64,000 bases of DNA from contig JADMII010000012.1 in NCBI GenBank assembly GCA_015478665.1, forward strand, positions 13,202-77,201. The letters run 5' to 3'. The number at the start of each line of letters is the position of its first letter. Position 1 is the first letter of the stretch. The DNA is from Dehalococcoidia bacterium. GTDB taxonomy: Bacteria > Chloroflexota > Dehalococcoidia > DSTF01 > JACRBR01. Both the position numbers and the translations under genes were made by a program. The notes beneath the pieces were generated by a model, which ran no database searches, was not told where the DNA came from, and was given only the letters and a program-made list of their open reading frames with translations. Below are positions 46,981 through 54,569 of this stretch, one piece after another.

Positions 46981-48387
46981 TTACAACCGCCGCCGCAGCG
47001 TCAGGTAGACGCCTGAGCCGGCGCCGACGACCATGATTCCCAGCACCGCGATGATCGCGATCGTGATGCCGCTCGCGCCGCCACTGCCGGCGGCGCCCGC
47101 AGCGGCGGTCCGGGTGGCGTCGCCCGCGGCAGGGGCGGCCGTCGTCGTCGCGCCGGTCGTCGGCGCCGCGACGCGCGCCGGCAGCCCGACGGACTGGCGC
47201 CATGCGTTCTCGAGGCCGAGCTGGTCGAAGCCGTACACCTTGCGGTAGGCATCGTCCGGCGTCGAGCCATCCTTGAACGTCCGCAGCAGCTCAGCGAACT
47301 TCTCCGCGCCGCGCGCATCGACCAGGTACTTCACGATCGAGCCCGCTTCGCCGTAGAACAGGCCGACCGTGTCGCCGGTGTCGGCGGCGGCCGACGAGCC
47401 GAGCTGGAGAATCGAGAGGGCGCTGTTGCTCCGGATCGCGGCGGCGAGCGCCTCCTGCTGGCTGGCGAGCGGCTGCTTCTGCGAGAAGACGGAGATGCCT
47501 TCGGCCAGCCAGCTGGTGATGCCGTACGGCCCCTTCGTCGCCTGGCTGGTGACGATGTGCGCGACCTCGTGCCGCGTGGTATCGAGCGTATCGACATCAG
47601 TGGACACCATCGCCGTGTCCGAATAGACGACCTCGCCGAGGATGGTGACGCCGCCGCCGATGCTTCCGGGAGCGATCGCCGGCTGCATCTCCTCGGCCGT
47701 CGCATAGAGGAAGACCTTGACCGGGAACGTCACCTGCGTCTGTTCCAGCGCGCCGACGTCCCTCAGGGTCTGCGCCGCGGCCACGAGCACGGCCTGCGCG
47801 TCGGCCTGCGAGCCTGCGTAATAGTACAGCGTGACGTTGGCGCTCTTGAGCGTCTTGAAGGTGAAGCGCGTGTCCTCGTGGACGTAGAGCTTGTCCTGCG
47901 TCACCAGCCGGTCGCCGGACGCGTCGGTGATCTCCCAGTGGTAGGTGATGTTGGCGCCGGGGATGATGACGATACCCTGCCCGCTCGTCAGCGAGAAGCT
48001 GCACCGCACGGTGCCCGTGCCGGTGCAGTCGGCGATCGCCGTCGCGCCCGTCCCGTCCGGCGCGAGCGTGTACAGCAGGCGCACCTCCTTCGGCGCCGCC
48101 GGCGCCGTGAAGCTGACGCTGAAGGTGACGCCACGCGGGAAGTTGTTTCGCGCCTGGTCGCTCGTCACGACGATCGGCGAAGACTGCGCCCGCGCCGTCG
48201 TGCGCAGCGGCCCGCCGGGCATGATGAGCGCCACCGCCAGCACCACCGCCACTGCCACGACGGCCCGCGCGCAATCAGCAGCGCTCCGCCGGCCGCATGC
48301 AGCGCCGGGCCTCGTCGAGCCTCCCGCCTGCCGCCTCCACCGGCGCCGAAGGGGTGCGGCCGCCTCTCGTACCCACCGTGTGAGCAC
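46981..48387 (-). CDS. Secreted peptidase MA-like zinc metalloprotease with C-terminal membrane anchor
   Basis: Signal-like VVAVAVVLAVALIMP, an HExxH site (TRHEVAHIV), a Thr/Ala-rich linker and a C-terminal TM (ITIAIIAVLGIMVVGAG). The GTG start lies 4 nt after the prfB stop. Confidence 0.5.
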   Translation of the reverse strand: MLTRWVREAAAPLRRRWRRQAGGSTRPGAACGRRSAADCARAVVAVAVVLAVALIMPGGPLRTTARAQSSPIVVTSDQARNNFPRGVTFSVSFTAPAAPKEVRLLYTLAPDGTGATAIADCTGTGTVRCSFSLTSGQGIVIIPGANITYHWEITDASGDRLVTQDKLYVHEDTRFTFKTLKSANVTLYYYAGSQADAQAVLVAAAQTLRDVGALEQTQVTFPVKVFLYATAEEMQPAIAPGSIGGGVTILGEVVYSDTAMVSTDVDTLDTTRHEVAHIVTSQATKGPYGITSWLAEGISVFSQKQPLASQQEALAAAIRSNSALSILQLGSSAAADTGDTVGLFYGEAGSIVKYLVDARGAEKFAELLRTFKDGSTPDDAYRKVYGFDQLGLENAWRQSVGLPARVAAPTTGATTTAAPAAGDATRTAAAGAAGSGGASGITIAIIAVLGIMVVGAGSGVYLTLRRRL

Positions 48388-48390
48388 CGC

Positions 48391-49507
48391 CTAGCCCTCC
48401 ACCTCGACGTCCGCACCCACCTGCGCCTTCAGGTAGGCCTGGATGAACGCATCAAGGTCGCCTTCGAGCACGTCCGCCGCGCTGCTCGTCTCGAACCCGG
48501 TGCGGTGGTCCTTCACCATCTTGTACGGATGCAGCACGTAGCTGCGGATCTGGTTGCTCCAGCCGGCGCTGACGTGCTCGCCCTTGATCTTCGCCTGCTC
48601 CTCGGCGTGGCGCTCCAGCTCGCGCTCGATGAGCCGCGCTTCGAGCACGCGCATCGCCGACTCGCGGTTGCGGTGCTGCGAGCGCTCGTTCTGGCAGGTG
48701 ACGACGATGTTCGTCGGCAGATGCGTGATGCGGATCGCCGTCGAGTTCTTCTGCACATTCTGGCCGCCGTGGCCGCTCGCCCGGAAGACGTCGACGCGGA
48801 TGTCATCAGGGTTGATCTTCACTTCCGCCGCATCGCCGGCCTCGGGCAGCACCTCGACGAGCGCGAACGACGTGTGGCGGGCGTGGGCGGAGTCAAACGG
48901 CGACAGGCGCACGAGGCGATGCACCCCGCGCTCGCTCTTCAGGTAGCCGTAGGCGTGCTGGCCGCTCACCTCGATGGTCGCGCTCTTGATGCCGGCCTCC
49001 TCGCCCGGCATCAGGTCGATGACCTCTGCCGGGAAGCGGCGTCGCTCGCACCAACGCAGATACATCCGCAGGAGCATCTCCGCCCAGTCCTGCGACTCGG
49101 TGCCGCCGGCGCCCGCGTGGATGGCGATGATCGCATTGCGTTCGTCGTACGGTCCGGAGAACGCAAGCTCGAACTCCAGCCCGTCGAGCTCCTGTTCGAG
49201 GCCGCCGGTGTCGCGCGTGAGGTCGCCGGCGAGCGCGTCGTCGTCCTCGCCATCGGCCAGCTCGACGAGCGCCAGGAGGTCGGCGGCGCGCGCTTCGATG
49301 CCGCGCCACGTGTCCACCCGCTGGCGGAGCGCGGCGGCGCGCTTCATCACATCCTGCGCCGACTGCGGGTCGTCCCAGAAGCCGGGCGCCGCAGCCTGCT
49401 CGTCGAGCGCCGCCGCCTGTCGTTCGAGCCCGGCGATGTCAAAGACGCACCATGACGTGCGCGATGCGTTCGCGGAGGGCGATCAGTCGTTCGCGAAGCT
49501 CGTGCAT
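48391..49507 (-). CDS. prfB: Peptide chain release factor 2, with programmed +1 ribosomal frameshift
   Basis: Frame 0 reads ATG CAC GAG CTT ... GTC ATG GTG CGT CTT TGA C (MHELRERLIALRERIAHVMVRL*) and ends on the canonical CUU UGA C shift site. The +1 frame then continues DIAGLERQAAALDEQ...MMKRAA...SGHGGQNVQK (GGQ). The start follows GAAGGAG. The track shows only the post-shift ORF. Confidence 0.85.
49438..49444 (-). other. prfB +1 frameshift site (CTT TGA C) preceded by internal SD-like GGTG
   Basis: The plus strand GTCAAAG at 49438-49444 is CTTTGAC on the coding strand. Confidence 0.8.
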
Positions 49508-49699: not shown

Positions 49700-50809
49700 T
49701 CATCGCCGTGTCTCCGTGTACCGCCGGCACTCGTCGATCACGGCGAGCGCGCCCGCTTCGCCCTTCCACTCCGTCACCGGCTTCCCCTGCCCGACGTACC
49801 AGGCGTAGATGCGCTCGCGCAGATCCGCGAGCGGCTCTTCCGGCCGGTCGGCGGCGACCGCGAGGAGCTTGTGGTCGCCGTCGCCGCGTTCGAGCACGTC
49901 GACCACGCGCACCTGCAGGCGCTCCCCTCGCTCACGCAGGCGCCGGTCAATGAGCATGATGTCGAAGAGCTCGTCATCGCCGGGGCAGATGATCTCCGCC
50001 GAGCAGCCGTAGTGCGTGAGCATCGGCTCCAAGTCGTGACGATACACGACGCGCTGCTCGTCAGAGAGCCACTCCCAGCGTCCGCGCTCACCGGCTCGCT
50101 GCTCGACCACCATCTCGAGCGTGGCGGCGAGCATCCGGCGCTTCGCCTCGCCGGCAATGCGATCGGCGAGGCGCGTCGGCTCCGGCGCGCGATAGCCGCG
50201 GGCGCAGCGCAGCACCCAGCGCTCCGCATCGTCGAGACCGATGCCGTTGCCGACGGAGACGAAGATCGAACGCACGCCCTCGCGTGTCCGCAGCATCGAG
50301 CCGATCAGCTCGCCGTCGTCGACGAGGTCGGCGCGCGAGCCGCGCGCCCCGGCAACCGTGCGCGGCACGCCGACCAGTCGCGTTTTGGCGACGCCGATCG
50401 TCGGGATGCCGAGCAGCACCCCGAGATGGCAGGCGAAGCCGAAGCGACGCGGGTGCGCGTAGCCGTGACCATCGACCATCAGCAGATCCGGCGGGTGCTG
50501 CAGGCGCTCGAACGCAGGCAGCAGCACCGGCGTCTCGCGGAACGACAGCAGGCCGGGGACGTACGGGAACGTCACCGCCGATTCCACCGTCACGCGCTCG
50601 ACCTCTTCGAGCGAGGGGTAGGCGAGCACGACGACCGCGCCGACCGCACGCCCATTGCGCTTGTCGAACGCGACGTCGCTGCCTGCTATGGACCGCACAT
50701 CGGTCTCCCGTACGGCGCCGCCGCGGACGACCCGCGGCGCGAGCTCGCGCTGCAGCCGCACGGCATCGGCCGCGGTGAGATCCCAGGGATGCAGCGGTTC
50801 AACGCGCAC
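49700..50809 (-). CDS. nfi: Endonuclease V (deoxyinosine 3' endonuclease) fused to a ~140-aa C-terminal domain of unknown function
   Basis: The N-terminal ~225 aa (GSDVAF, PYVPGLLSFRE, LLMVDGHGYAHPRRFGFACHLGV, IGVAK) are EndoV. There is no stop before a further 140 residues (EWLSDEQRVVYRHDLEPMLTHYGCSAEIICPGDDELFD...). Confidence 0.7.
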   Translation of the reverse strand: MRVEPLHPWDLTAADAVRLQRELAPRVVRGGAVRETDVRSIAGSDVAFDKRNGRAVGAVVVLAYPSLEEVERVTVESAVTFPYVPGLLSFRETPVLLPAFERLQHPPDLLMVDGHGYAHPRRFGFACHLGVLLGIPTIGVAKTRLVGVPRTVAGARGSRADLVDDGELIGSMLRTREGVRSIFVSVGNGIGLDDAERWVLRCARGYRAPEPTRLADRIAGEAKRRMLAATLEMVVEQRAGERGRWEWLSDEQRVVYRHDLEPMLTHYGCSAEIICPGDDELFDIMLIDRRLRERGERLQVRVVDVLERGDGDHKLLAVAADRPEEPLADLRERIYAWYVGQGKPVTEWKGEAGALAVIDECRRYTETRR

Positions 50810-50928
50810 GGCCGGGCCGTTCCAGCAGGTGTATGGCGTCAGCCGTCCGACCCGCCAGCAGCGGCGCCCGGCCGGTGAACCGAGGGAGGCGGCGCAGGCG
50901 CTTGTCCGCGTCGCACGCGATCACTACG

Positions 50929-51342
50929 ATGGGCACGGTGAAGCTTCCTCGGATGTTCGTCCTCCTGATCTTCGCGGCGCTGTTGGGCGCGGCCTGCGGC
51001 GTCGCCTTCTCGGCGCCGAAGCGCAACCGCACGTTGTTTCAGTCGCTGAGCGTGACCGGCGAACTGCGCACGGGCCAGCCGCTGACCGCGGCGCTCGCGT
51101 ACCAGCAGTACCTGCCGATCGAGATCGACGTGCGCTGCGAGGTACGGCAGTCGAAGAAGCTGATCAAGCCCATCGGCCAGATGAAGGTGCCCGCGTACCC
51201 GAACGGCAGCCCGACCGTGACGCCGTTCCCCGGCAACATCTCCTACGATTTTACCATCGACAAGGCAGGCGACTACTTCGTCGAGTGCTACACGCCGAGC
51301 GACAAGGACAACGCGATCCGCTATCCGTTCAGCGTAGATTGA
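50929..51342 (+). CDS. Small secreted protein, hypothetical
   Basis: Signal peptide MFVLLIFAALLGAACGVAFS; codon usage is coding-like. Confidence 0.3.
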   Translation: MGTVKLPRMFVLLIFAALLGAACGVAFSAPKRNRTLFQSLSVTGELRTGQPLTAALAYQQYLPIEIDVRCEVRQSKKLIKPIGQMKVPAYPNGSPTVTPFPGNISYDFTIDKAGDYFVECYTPSDKDNAIRYPFSVD

Positions 51343-51809: not shown

Positions 51810-53552
51810 TCAGGCGGCCGAATCCTCGCTCTGGCCGGGCGGCGTGAAGTCGTCGTGGTCGATGTGATCGTCGGAGATCAGGTGCGGCACGCGCACCTGC
51901 AGGTGCGGCTTCGAGTCCATCATCGCCGCGAATGCGACGACGACGACAGGGTCGAACTGCGTGCCGCTGTTCGCGGCGATCTCGGCCATCGCCGCCTCGT
52001 GCCCCATGGCAGCGCGGTAGGGACGGTCGGAGGTCATCGCGTCGTAGGAGTCGACGACGGAGAAGATGCGCGCATCGACGGGGATCTTGTCGCCGGCGAT
52101 CCCGAAGGGATAGCCGGCGCCGTCGTAGCGCTCGTGGTGGTAGAGGAGGATGGGCAGCGCCCCCTCGAGGAAGCCGACCTTGCCGACCATGACGCCGGCG
52201 AGCAGGGGATGCTTGCGCATCGCTTCCCACTCCATCTCGTTGAGGTCCTTCGGCTTCTTGAGCACGGCGTCGGGCACGCCGATCTTGCCGACGTCGTGGA
52301 GCAGCGCGCCGCGCTCCATATCGATCAGGCGGGGCTCCGGCAGCCCCATCTCCCGCGCGAGGTGCGCGGTGAGCTTGGCGACACGCTCACAGTGGCCCTC
52401 GGTGGCGTCGTCCTTCGTGTCGAGCGCCGCCATGAGCACCTTCAGCGTCGTGTCGTATGACGTCTCGAGCTCGTCGGCGTATGAGCGCACCTTGGCGAAG
52501 AGGAGCGCCTGCTCGACGGCCATCACCGCCTGGTCCGTGAGCTCCTCGACGATACGCCGTTCGTCTTCCGAGTAGGCGCCGATGGATGCCGAGCGGACCA
52601 GCGCGATGGCGCCGACGACGCGGCCGCGGAGGGCGAGCGGCACGCAGAGGACGGCCACCTGTCCCTCGGTCTGCAACTCCTCGCCGAGGAGGTAGGTGTA
52701 GGCGGCGACGGGCTGTGTGCTGACGATGGTCGTGTTCGTCGCGACGGCGCGGCGCAAGAACCACTCGTCGATGGCCCGCTGGTGCTGGTCCTCGCGACCG
52801 GTGGTCGCGTCGTAGGTCGCGCGCAGTACGAGCTCGCCGGTCTCCGCCTCGAAGAGCGCGAGGAAGCCGTACTGCGCGTGCGCCAGCTGGGTGACGTCGT
52901 GCGTGATCTGCGCCACGACGTCGTGCAGGTCGAGCGAGGAGCGGATCTCCTGTCCGCGCGTGTACATGAACTCGAGGCGACGGTGCTGGCCGGCGAGCCG
53001 CCGCATGCTCAACCAGAAGGCGCCCTGGACCAGCGTGTAGGCGATCAGCGCGATCACCATCGTCAGCATGATCAGGCCATCCTGCAGCGATGCGATCGCG
53101 TTGTCGACGGGCGCGGCGGCCCGGTCGACTTCGACGGTGAAGCCGTTGCCCGTGAGATAGCCGGCGAAGACGCGGCTGCCGTCGCCCGCGGTGAACCGCG
53201 CCGAGGACGCGCCGGGCGGGAGGCGGTCCGCCGGCATGGCGGCGCCGCGCGAGAACAGGAGCTCGCCGTCCGACCAGACGCGCACGGCGAGCACATCGCC
53301 GCCCAAGTACGACGTCGCGAGACCGGCGCGGCTCTGAAGCTCCTCCGCGGTGGGCGCGCTGCTGCCGGCGGCCAGCGCGTTGTGCAACGGCACGCCGACG
53401 AGGCCGCGCGTCGCGGTGGCGGCGTTCGCCTCGCCGGCCGTCGAGGCCAGCGTGCGGGCGAGGAAGGCGAACCCGCCCGCCAGCACGAGGACGAGCACGA
53501 GACTGACCACGGCGAAACGCAGGTGCGCCTTTGAGTTGGACTCGGAGTGCAT
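51810..53552 (-). CDS. Membrane sensor with GAF and HD-GYP domains (c-di-GMP phosphodiesterase-like)
   Basis: N-terminal TM, a periplasmic segment, a second TM, then GAF and an HD domain (HCERVAKLTAHLA...HDVGKIGVP...HHERYDGAGYP, the HD-GYP signature). Confidence 0.75.
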   Translation of the reverse strand: MHSESNSKAHLRFAVVSLVLVLVLAGGFAFLARTLASTAGEANAATATRGLVGVPLHNALAAGSSAPTAEELQSRAGLATSYLGGDVLAVRVWSDGELLFSRGAAMPADRLPPGASSARFTAGDGSRVFAGYLTGNGFTVEVDRAAAPVDNAIASLQDGLIMLTMVIALIAYTLVQGAFWLSMRRLAGQHRRLEFMYTRGQEIRSSLDLHDVVAQITHDVTQLAHAQYGFLALFEAETGELVLRATYDATTGREDQHQRAIDEWFLRRAVATNTTIVSTQPVAAYTYLLGEELQTEGQVAVLCVPLALRGRVVGAIALVRSASIGAYSEDERRIVEELTDQAVMAVEQALLFAKVRSYADELETSYDTTLKVLMAALDTKDDATEGHCERVAKLTAHLAREMGLPEPRLIDMERGALLHDVGKIGVPDAVLKKPKDLNEMEWEAMRKHPLLAGVMVGKVGFLEGALPILLYHHERYDGAGYPFGIAGDKIPVDARIFSVVDSYDAMTSDRPYRAAMGHEAAMAEIAANSGTQFDPVVVVAFAAMMDSKPHLQVRVPHLISDDHIDHDDFTPPGQSEDSAA

Positions 53553-53735
53553 GTGCCTTGCTCGGTGCTGCGGGATCTCTCGTTCTGTATCGGCCGCCGA
53601 CGCAACCCCCTGTAGCCCGCCGCGCCGCCCGGGCGCCCGCGCCTCATGCGACGAGACGGGCAGCAAAACCCGCATTACGTTCGTTCCATGCGAGCAGGAG
53701 CCGGGCCTGTGCCGAGGCGCTGCTATAGTGACTGC

Positions 53736-54569
53736 ATGCAGGACAAGCTCGCAGCCCTTCACCGCATCCTCCGGGAGATGGATTCCGTCATCGTCGCCTT
53801 CTCCGCCGGCGTCGACAGCACGTTCGTGGCGGCCGTCGCCGCCGACGTGCTCGGCGCGCGCGCGCTCGCGGTCACCGGCGTCTCCCCGTCCATCCCGCAA
53901 TCGGAGGTCGAAGAGGCGAAGGCGCTGGCCCGGCAGATCGGCATCCGGCACGAGCTGCTGCCGACGTCGGAGATGGACGTCCCTGGTTATGTCGAGAACA
54001 GCTCCCGGCGCTGCTACTTCTGCAAGACGGAGCTGTACTCCATCCTCGAGGCGCTCGCCGCGCGCGACGACTACGACTACGTCGCCGATGGCTGCAATCT
54101 GGACGACCTCGGCGACCATCGCCCGGGGCGGCTGGCGGCGAACGAGCACAAGGTGCGCAGCCCGCTCATCGAAGCCGGCCTGACCAAGGCGGAGATCCGC
54201 GAGCTGTCGAAGGCGCGCGGGCTACCTACGTGGGACAAGCCGGCGATGGCCTGCCTCTCGTCGCGCATCCCCTACGGCACGCCTGTGACAGTCGAGGCGC
54301 TGGACCAGATCGGGGCCGCGGAGGCGTTCCTGCGCGGGCTGGGGCTGCGGCAGTTGCGGGTCCGGCACCACAGCGAGGTCGCCCGCATCGAGGTTGAGCC
54401 GGAGCAGCTGGCGCAGGTCGTCGAGCATCGCGAGCGGATCGTGCGGCGGCTGAAGAACCTGGGCTACCGGTACGTGACGCTCGACCTCGCCGGCTTCCGC
54501 AGCGGCTCGATGAATGAGGGACTGGCGGCGGCCCGACCGCAGACAATTGACAACAGACCGCAGAGCTGA
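53736..54569 (+). CDS. PP-loop ATP pyrophosphatase, LarE-like (TIGR00268 family)
   Basis: PP-loop VAFSAGVDSTF and the conserved Cys in ACLSSRIPYG, as in sacrificial sulfur transferase LarE. Confidence 0.6.
   Translation: MQDKLAALHRILREMDSVIVAFSAGVDSTFVAAVAADVLGARALAVTGVSPSIPQSEVEEAKALARQIGIRHELLPTSEMDVPGYVENSSRRCYFCKTELYSILEALAARDDYDYVADGCNLDDLGDHRPGRLAANEHKVRSPLIEAGLTKAEIRELSKARGLPTWDKPAMACLSSRIPYGTPVTVEALDQIGAAEAFLRGLGLRQLRVRHHSEVARIEVEPEQLAQVVEHRERIVRRLKNLGYRYVTLDLAGFRSGSMNEGLAAARPQTIDNRPQS

Follow-up and report, generated by a model that had tools for sequence, protein, structure and literature searches.

What does a bacterial endonuclease V (EndoV) gene encode when its reading frame runs on past the end of the nuclease? 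The question is raised by a gene in a 64,000-nucleotide stretch of DNA from a Dehalococcoidia bacterium (phylum Chloroflexota; GenBank assembly GCA_015478665.1, contig JADMII010000012.1, positions 13,202 to 77,201 of the forward strand), which is referred to here as the window. On the minus strand at 49700..50809, a program-made list of open reading frames (ORFs) gives a single ORF of 369 amino acids with a GTG start and a TGA stop. An earlier note on this DNA, made from the letters alone, described it as EndoV with an in-frame C-terminal extension of about 140 residues. This description was confirmed: the peptide strings given in the note occur in the ORF, the alignment with Escherichia coli EndoV ends at residue 221 and no stop occurs before residue 369. 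The extension is a complete, divergent fold of the family I inorganic pyrophosphatases (PPases), spanning residues 229-369. Together, the sequence analyses point to a real, conserved and uncharacterised bifunctional architecture, for which a function is proposed below.

Conservation was mapped on 47 fusion proteins of 58-86% identity. The features of the gene are as follows.

49700..50809, minus strand: whole fusion gene, EndoV plus pyrophosphatase-like (GTG at 50809-50807, TGA at 49702-49700; ORF list)
50147..50809, minus strand: endonuclease V domain, residues 1-221, which holds D45, PYVP (82-85), E92, D113, K142 and D216
50126..50182, minus strand: connecting α-helix, residues 210-228, EPTRLADRIAGEAKRRMLA (DSSP on the AlphaFold2 model; conservation)
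49703..50125, minus strand: family I inorganic-pyrophosphatase-like domain, residues 229-369
50069..50104, minus strand: EQRAGERGRWEW, residues 236-247, clade-specific first PPase strand and hairpin (E236, R244, W245 and E246 conserved in 47/47)
49958..49978, minus strand: DDELFDI, residues 278-284, counterpart of the PPase signature D65-x-D67-x-x-D70 (D278, E280, D283)
49868..49882, minus strand: DGDHK, residues 310-314, counterpart of E. coli D97...D102-x-K104 (loop three residues shorter)

Reading frame and endonuclease V domain

The window has a G+C content of 69% and the ORF list holds long spurious ORFs in every frame, so that an open frame by itself means little. The 369-residue ORF is nevertheless not a chance open frame: the codon-position G+C of its two halves matches (0.87 and 0.89 at third positions, 0.43-0.50 at second positions), the protein is conserved and both halves are under purifying selection. 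The whole protein was modelled with AlphaFold2 (AF2) at a mean predicted local distance difference test (pLDDT) value of 95.6 and a predicted template-modelling score (pTM) of 0.91. An identical protein in NCBI (P0011) is entered as 'MAG: deoxyribonuclease V [Dehalococcoidia bacterium]', where MAG denotes a metagenome-assembled genome; under this annotation, half of the protein is invisible to annotation-based surveys.

At deoxyinosine and other deaminated bases, EndoV makes a magnesium-dependent nick in the DNA, at the second phosphodiester on the 3' side. The Pfam family Endonuclease_5 (PF04493) was matched at residues 23-217 with an E-value of 4.7e-69 (232.4 bits against a cut-off of 23.4), and the NCBIfam equivalog model for deoxyribonuclease V, NF008629, at residues 14-223 with 246.9 bits (cut-off 230). 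The RNase H-like fold of EndoV was found. The alignment with E. coli EndoV reaches query residue 221, corresponding to chain residue 214 of 217; as it stops only three residues short of the end of the crystallised chain, the EndoV domain is considered complete. About 145 residues follow with no stop between. Residues D43, E89, D110 and K139 of the Thermotoga maritima enzyme correspond by alignment to D45, E92, D113 and K142 of the fusion, and position 214, which is His or Asp in EndoV, to D216, E. coli likewise having Asp. D45, E92, D113, K142 and D216 are all invariant among the 47 fusions. The PYVP motif at residues 82-85 is aligned with the strand-separating PYIP wedge present in both T. 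maritima and E. coli EndoV. Two of its positions, Y83 and P85, do not vary among the fusions, and the other two, P82 and V84, are at least 90% conserved. From the family scores and these residues, the N-terminal 221 residues are predicted to be a catalytically intact endonuclease V.

Fold of the C-terminal domain

The earlier note could match the extension to no known domain, a statement now superseded by results from Pfam, hhalign and Foldseek that all lead to the divergent family I PPase fold. When residues 224-369 were scanned alone, PF00719 was matched over profile positions 1-148 of 153 with 25.1 bits (cut-off 23.5). A sequence search of the tail against PDB chains returned PPases only below threshold (E-values of 0.13-2), and the domain shares only 16-22% identity with solved PPases. 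In an exhaustive HMMER search of 1.84 billion representatives only 30 relatives of the domain were found at E <= 0.001; among them are proteins of 154-165 amino acids with 31-38% identity that are themselves clear PF00719 members (E-values of 1e-10 to 1e-23). A profile of the fusion C-termini and these intermediate relatives runs into canonical diphosphatases of 178-181 amino acids, and hhalign aligned the 47 fusion C-termini with 46 canonical PPases at a probability of 97.6% and an E-value of 2.9e-12 over 134 columns.

The tail was also modelled separately, with a pLDDT of 92.5. In a Foldseek search with this model, the best 50 PDB matches were all family I PPases, with TM-scores of 0.65-0.84. 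The oligonucleotide/oligosaccharide-binding (OB)-type barrel and the two helices of the PPase fold were found. In comparison with E. coli PPA the domain is about 30 residues shorter: the D97 loop is reduced, and residues are missing on either side of helix A.

Occurrence and integrity of the fusion

The C-terminal domain was located at 18 loci in GTDB species-representative genomes, all of which are MAGs of Chloroflexota/Dehalococcoidia. Of these 18 loci, 16 encode both domains in a single frame, and the products match the query from end to end with 58-76% identity. The best 120 protein clusters in a collection of 5.8 billion proteins measure 322-395 amino acids and are 58-86% identical to the query, which they cover to at least 93% in all cases except one; precomputed matches to PF04493 and PF00719 are given for 41 of them. 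The fusions were assembled independently, and the clusters come from NCBI, JGI, ENA and Logan. The same fusion, which the earlier note proposed to look for in related genomes, was thus found in 16 of 18 species representatives. The alternative that the note had raised, a sequencing frameshift joining two genes, is refuted by these in-frame fusions together with the at least 120 clusters.

What could still be cited for a frameshift or assembly error in the contig are frame breaks in three relatives. In L010 the break lies inside EndoV (L010:3494-3530), and L020, on a small contig, has one extra C after codon ~228 (L020:3990-4010). L002 is a short metagenome contig in which the linker differs by a net 13 nucleotides and the domains are in different frames (L002:689-729). 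Against this stands the intact fusion copy L017, which is held by the same MAG as L020; moreover, L010 and L020 belong to Microflora Danica (MFD) MAGs, which we take to be long-read assemblies. The breaks are probably errors or pseudogenes, and L002 could be a real secondary split. As remnants of an ancestral two-gene state, L002 and L020 were rejected and attributed to indels (the net 13 nucleotides and the extra C, respectively). In view of the comparative data, an artefact in the present contig is next to inconceivable.

Apparent standalone homologues measure 139-170 amino acids. P0002, P0003, P0004 (L001) and P0005 (L025) were rejected as separate genes; they are fusions cut by contig ends, since C-terminal residues of EndoV (EPTRLADR...AKRRM) are found in frame upstream. 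P0001 begins 20 nucleotides from a contig end, and P0007 may be a truly standalone PPase-like gene. A separate downstream gene with an intervening stop, which the earlier note had held against a fusion, is therefore a description for which only a few relatives could qualify (L002 and L020 through their junction indels, and possibly P0007); otherwise the two domains are fused.

The ratio of non-synonymous to synonymous substitution rates (dN/dS) has a pairwise median of 0.27 in the EndoV half and 0.40 in the C-terminal half, values that are probably, if anything, overestimates because G+C-biased third positions deflate dS. Both halves are under purifying selection. The predicted bifunctional architecture is conserved and so far restricted to one Dehalococcoidia-class lineage.

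Active site of the pyrophosphatase-like domain

According to the accepted PPase mechanism (E. coli PPA numbering), the nucleophilic water is activated by metals that are bound to carboxylates; the electrophilic phosphate is bound by Y55 and K104, the leaving-group phosphate by K29, R43, Y141 and K142. The correspondence, with conservation in the fusions, is as follows.

E. coli E20: E236, 47/47
E. coli K29: R244, 47/47
E. coli E31: E246, 47/47
E. coli R43: R257, 31/47 (Q in 8, K in 5)
E. coli Y51: M263, M in 44/47, F in 3
E. coli Y55: Y267, 47/47
E. coli D65: D278, 47/47
E. coli D67: E280, E in 41, D in 5
E. coli D70: D283, 47/47
E. coli D97: D310, 47/47; loop three residues shorter, equivalence dependent on gap placement
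E. coli D102: D312, 46/47
E. coli K104: K314, 47/47
E. coli Y141: Y338, 33/47
E. coli K142: V339, V/T/I/R; lysine lost

The metal-binding and general-base carboxylates (E20, E31, D65, D67, D70, D97 and D102) are all represented, D67 by a conservative change to Glu, and K29 is replaced by Arg. W245 is conserved in 47/47 fusions, and the arginines R238, R294, R301, R308 and R331 are conserved and clade-specific. This map points to a preserved catalytic engine, consisting of a di- or tri-metal carboxylate centre and an electrophilic-phosphate site, combined with a remodelled leaving-group site. The lesion-recognition or partner-recruitment module suggested in the earlier note finds no support here: it was rejected because the conserved positions belong to the metal centre of a metal-dependent hydrolase.

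Several observations weigh against reading the domain as a working PPase. The PF00719 match is marginal, and in the context of the whole protein it scores 20.8 bits, under the cut-off of 23.5; no NCBIfam model, for PPase or otherwise, matches the C-terminal domain. The full set of phosphate ligands (K29, R43, Y55, K104, Y141 and K142) is not retained: K142, a ligand of the leaving-group phosphate in E. coli, is V, T, I or R, while R43 and Y141 are kept in only 31/47 and 33/47 fusions, and Y51 is Met. A regular-expression search of all six frames of the window gave no match to the PROSITE-type signature D-[SGDN]-D-[PE]-[LIVMF]-D-[LIVMGAC], from which DDELFDI differs. The C-terminal domain also evolves faster than the EndoV domain. 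Because the signature is unmatched and K142 is lost, the domain is named pyrophosphatase-like and not a proven PPase. Efficient hydrolysis of pyrophosphate (PPi) is not assured, given the lost ligands, the unmatched signature and the weak family scores.

Junction between the domains

By DSSP on the AF2 model, the last helix of EndoV (residues 210-228) runs unbroken up to strand 230-237, the first of the PPase-like barrel. R213, D216, A222, K223 and M226 in this helix are invariant or at least 90% conserved among the fusions. The continuous helix and the pTM of 0.91 suggest that the two domains are held in a fixed mutual orientation in the model.

M226 (window 50132-50134, minus strand) lies at the domain boundary AKRRM|L with GAGG 11 nucleotides upstream, and gene callers place the starts of the 'standalone' fragments exactly at this residue. 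The best reading of M226 is that it is a remnant of the start codon of a downstream PPase-like gene that used to be separate; the fusion probably formed when the stop codon between that gene and nfi, the EndoV gene, was lost. It is possible that M226 still serves as an internal translation start and yields a free C-terminal domain.

Proposed function and alternatives

EndoV is among the most conserved repair nucleases, yet what follows its nick in bacteria is still poorly defined. Polymerases and ATP-dependent ligases release PPi and are inhibited by it, and PPi also drives pyrophosphorolysis of the nicked 3' end. We consider it probable, with considerable room for doubt, that this genuine single gene encodes a two-domain repair enzyme and that its C-terminal domain actively hydrolyses phosphoanhydrides with Mg2+, PPi being the most likely substrate; PPi is preferred because of the homology and because most ligands are retained. 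The EndoV half would nick at a deaminated base, repair synthesis and ligation would follow, and the C-terminal domain, held in a fixed position on EndoV by the continuous helix, would remove PPi locally at these steps. If it does so, local control of PPi would matter for repair synthesis at EndoV nicks. A conserved and rigid fusion is a 'Rosetta-stone' hint that, in one lineage or more, the repair of deaminated bases is functionally linked to the hydrolysis of PPi or of nucleotides. No second PPase, H+-PPase or RdgB was found in the window or at the related loci by tblastn, motif scans and a canonical-PPase HMM on six-frame translations, 64 kb being too little for a conclusion.

The remodelled leaving-group pocket (Lys142 lost, Arg43 variable, Tyr51 replaced by Met) makes a bulkier substrate such as a nucleotide a serious alternative. 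On this account, which we hold to be unlikely yet worth keeping in sight, the domain would be a house-cleaning nucleotide pyrophosphatase for the triphosphates of deoxyinosine, inosine and xanthosine (dITP, ITP and XTP), analogous in function to RdgB/ITPA. With the same low expectation, one polypeptide would remove deoxyinosine from DNA and destroy its precursor, so stopping re-incorporation during patch synthesis. Changes of K142 to V/T/I, of Y51 to M and a variable R43 beside an intact metal centre and electrophilic-phosphate site are what would be expected if the leaving group were not bare phosphate. EndoV and the dITPase RdgB deal with a common problem in E. coli, where nicking by EndoV does harm once RdgB is lacking (PMC3288088; PMC1173102). 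Short type I PPase domains related to this one are joined to GNAT and to DUF402, and a fusion with NUDIX has been published (PMC5512222). A base-binding pocket is hypothetical here, however; family I PPases have been characterised mainly as PPi-specific; and the nearest standalone relatives lie beside Zn-dehydrogenase and polysaccharide deacetylase genes, not repair genes. Were hydrolysis of dITP or XTP true, these nucleotides would make up a class of substrates new to the PPase fold. The lineage would then combine sanitation of the nucleotide pool with excision of the lesion in one rigid enzyme, a physical answer to the futile excision and re-incorporation that rdgB/nfi genetics has revealed in E. 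coli.

Two further explanations assign no catalysis, or no meaning, to the fusion. A non-enzymatic domain that assembles or positions EndoV, as an oligomerisation scaffold or an OB-fold-type nucleic-acid-binding module, would be in keeping with the OB-fold core of the PPase fold (PMC5512222), with the rigid helical connection and high pTM, with the partial loss of canonical phosphate ligands and with the clade-specific arginines (R238, R294, R301, R308 and R331). Bacterial family I PPases, moreover, are hexamers. A purely structural role gives no reason for 9 or 10 catalytic-centre residues to be invariant in 47 sequences with 58-86% identity, and a dense carboxylate cluster is unfavourable for DNA binding; we therefore regard this role as quite improbable. 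It is more doubtful still that an ordinary housekeeping pyrophosphatase has simply been joined to the neighbouring nfi and tolerated. M226 at the junction does suggest simple stop-codon loss between adjacent genes, and the neighbours (prfB and a peptidase gene) are housekeeping genes with no repair context. Housekeeping PPases, however, are strongly conserved, whereas here the identity to solved PPases is only 16-22%, K142 is absent and the signature is unmatched; the domain's close family is tiny (the 30 representatives among 1.84 billion), and the connector is a rigid conserved helix, not a loose linker. An active hydrolase acting on PPi at EndoV nicks is thus the reading that we prefer.

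Comparison with known systems

Bacterial EndoV enzymes such as E. coli Nfi and T. maritima EndoV (PDB entries 2w35 and 3hd0) are single-domain proteins of about 220-225 amino acids. The remark in the earlier note that an extra C-terminal domain is unusual for a bacterial EndoV is therefore borne out, the present protein adding 148 residues that lead into a second folded domain. The family I soluble PPases (E. coli PPA; PF00719) are free-standing, whereas the domain described here, at 16-22% identity, is joined to a nuclease. Each part is familiar in itself, and the combination can be read from precomputed domain tables; full-text literature searches returned no description of an EndoV-pyrophosphatase fusion. 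PMC13212565 was rejected as a report of an EndoV fusion, as it concerns endonuclease VIII.

The closest precedent for an EndoV fusion is AGT-EndoV, a bifunctional protein of Ferroplasma acidarmanus (Kanugula et al., 2005, PNAS 102:3617; cited in PMC7690668). There too, EndoV is fused to a second, independently active domain related to DNA repair. In that archaeal protein the partner is an O6-alkylguanine-DNA alkyltransferase and stands at the N-terminus, whereas the Chloroflexota protein has its PPase-like domain at the C-terminus.

Type I 'InPase' domains occur in phage polyvalent proteins, and relatives are fused to NUDIX or GNAT (Iyer et al., 2017; PMC5512222). They resemble the present domain in being divergent family I PPase domains recruited into multidomain nucleic-acid or nucleotide proteins, for which clearing of PPi beside nucleic-acid enzymes or a nucleotide-like substrate was proposed (PMC5512222). 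They lack the β-hairpin between strands 1 and 2 that the fusion domain keeps (strands 244-248 and 253-258 in the model), and are not reported with EndoV (PMC5512222). In a Pfam scan, PF18823 did not match the window protein. RdgB/ITPA, the dITP/XTP pyrophosphatases of the Ham1 family, offer a possible functional analogy only, in that they deal with deaminated purines alongside EndoV; their fold and sequence are unrelated to those of the fusion domain.

Among distant members of the short PPase-like subfamily, P0148 is fused to a GNAT acetyltransferase and P0156 to DUF402, and P0143 and P0146 carry N-terminal regions of about 150-170 residues ahead of the PPase-like domain. In the standalone versions L021 and L022, the gene overlaps one for a Zn-dependent dehydrogenase and is followed by one for a polysaccharide deacetylase. 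The short PPase-like fold seems to have been recruited repeatedly into small-molecule or nucleotide contexts.

Gene neighbourhood

The order secreted-looking protein, fusion, prfB and peptidase MA protein is conserved across the lineage. These neighbours and a GAF-HD-GYP protein gave no functional hint for the fusion.

Directly downstream of the fusion, at 48391-49507 on the minus strand, lies prfB, the gene for release factor 2. It has a programmed +1 frameshift site of the classical type, CTT TGA C, at 49444-49438 (minus strand), and its ORF1 begins with ATG at 49507-49505 behind a GAAGGAG Shine-Dalgarno sequence; only the 319-residue second part (48391-49350) is present in the ORF list. The next gene, at 46981-48387 (minus strand), encodes a 468-residue protein with Peptidase_MA_2 at residues 204-400 and a C-terminal Ala/Gly/Thr-rich region and transmembrane segment; most related genomes have it in synteny with prfB and the fusion gene.

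On the other side, a 169-residue ORF at 50833-51342 (plus strand) adjoins the fusion and is divergently transcribed. It has no Pfam match, a hydrophobic N-terminal segment suggests a signal peptide, and it is kept at the same position in 15 related loci (38-61% identity). Beyond it, at 51810-54149 (minus strand), a 779-residue ORF contains a GAF domain at residues 406-546 and an HD-GYP-type HD_5 domain at residues 570-736; its product is likely to be a cyclic-di-GMP phosphodiesterase, judging from these domains. The first ~190 residues of this ORF are Arg/Gly-rich and look non-coding, and alignment with the homologue in L003 begins only at residue 149; translation probably starts downstream of the listed position.

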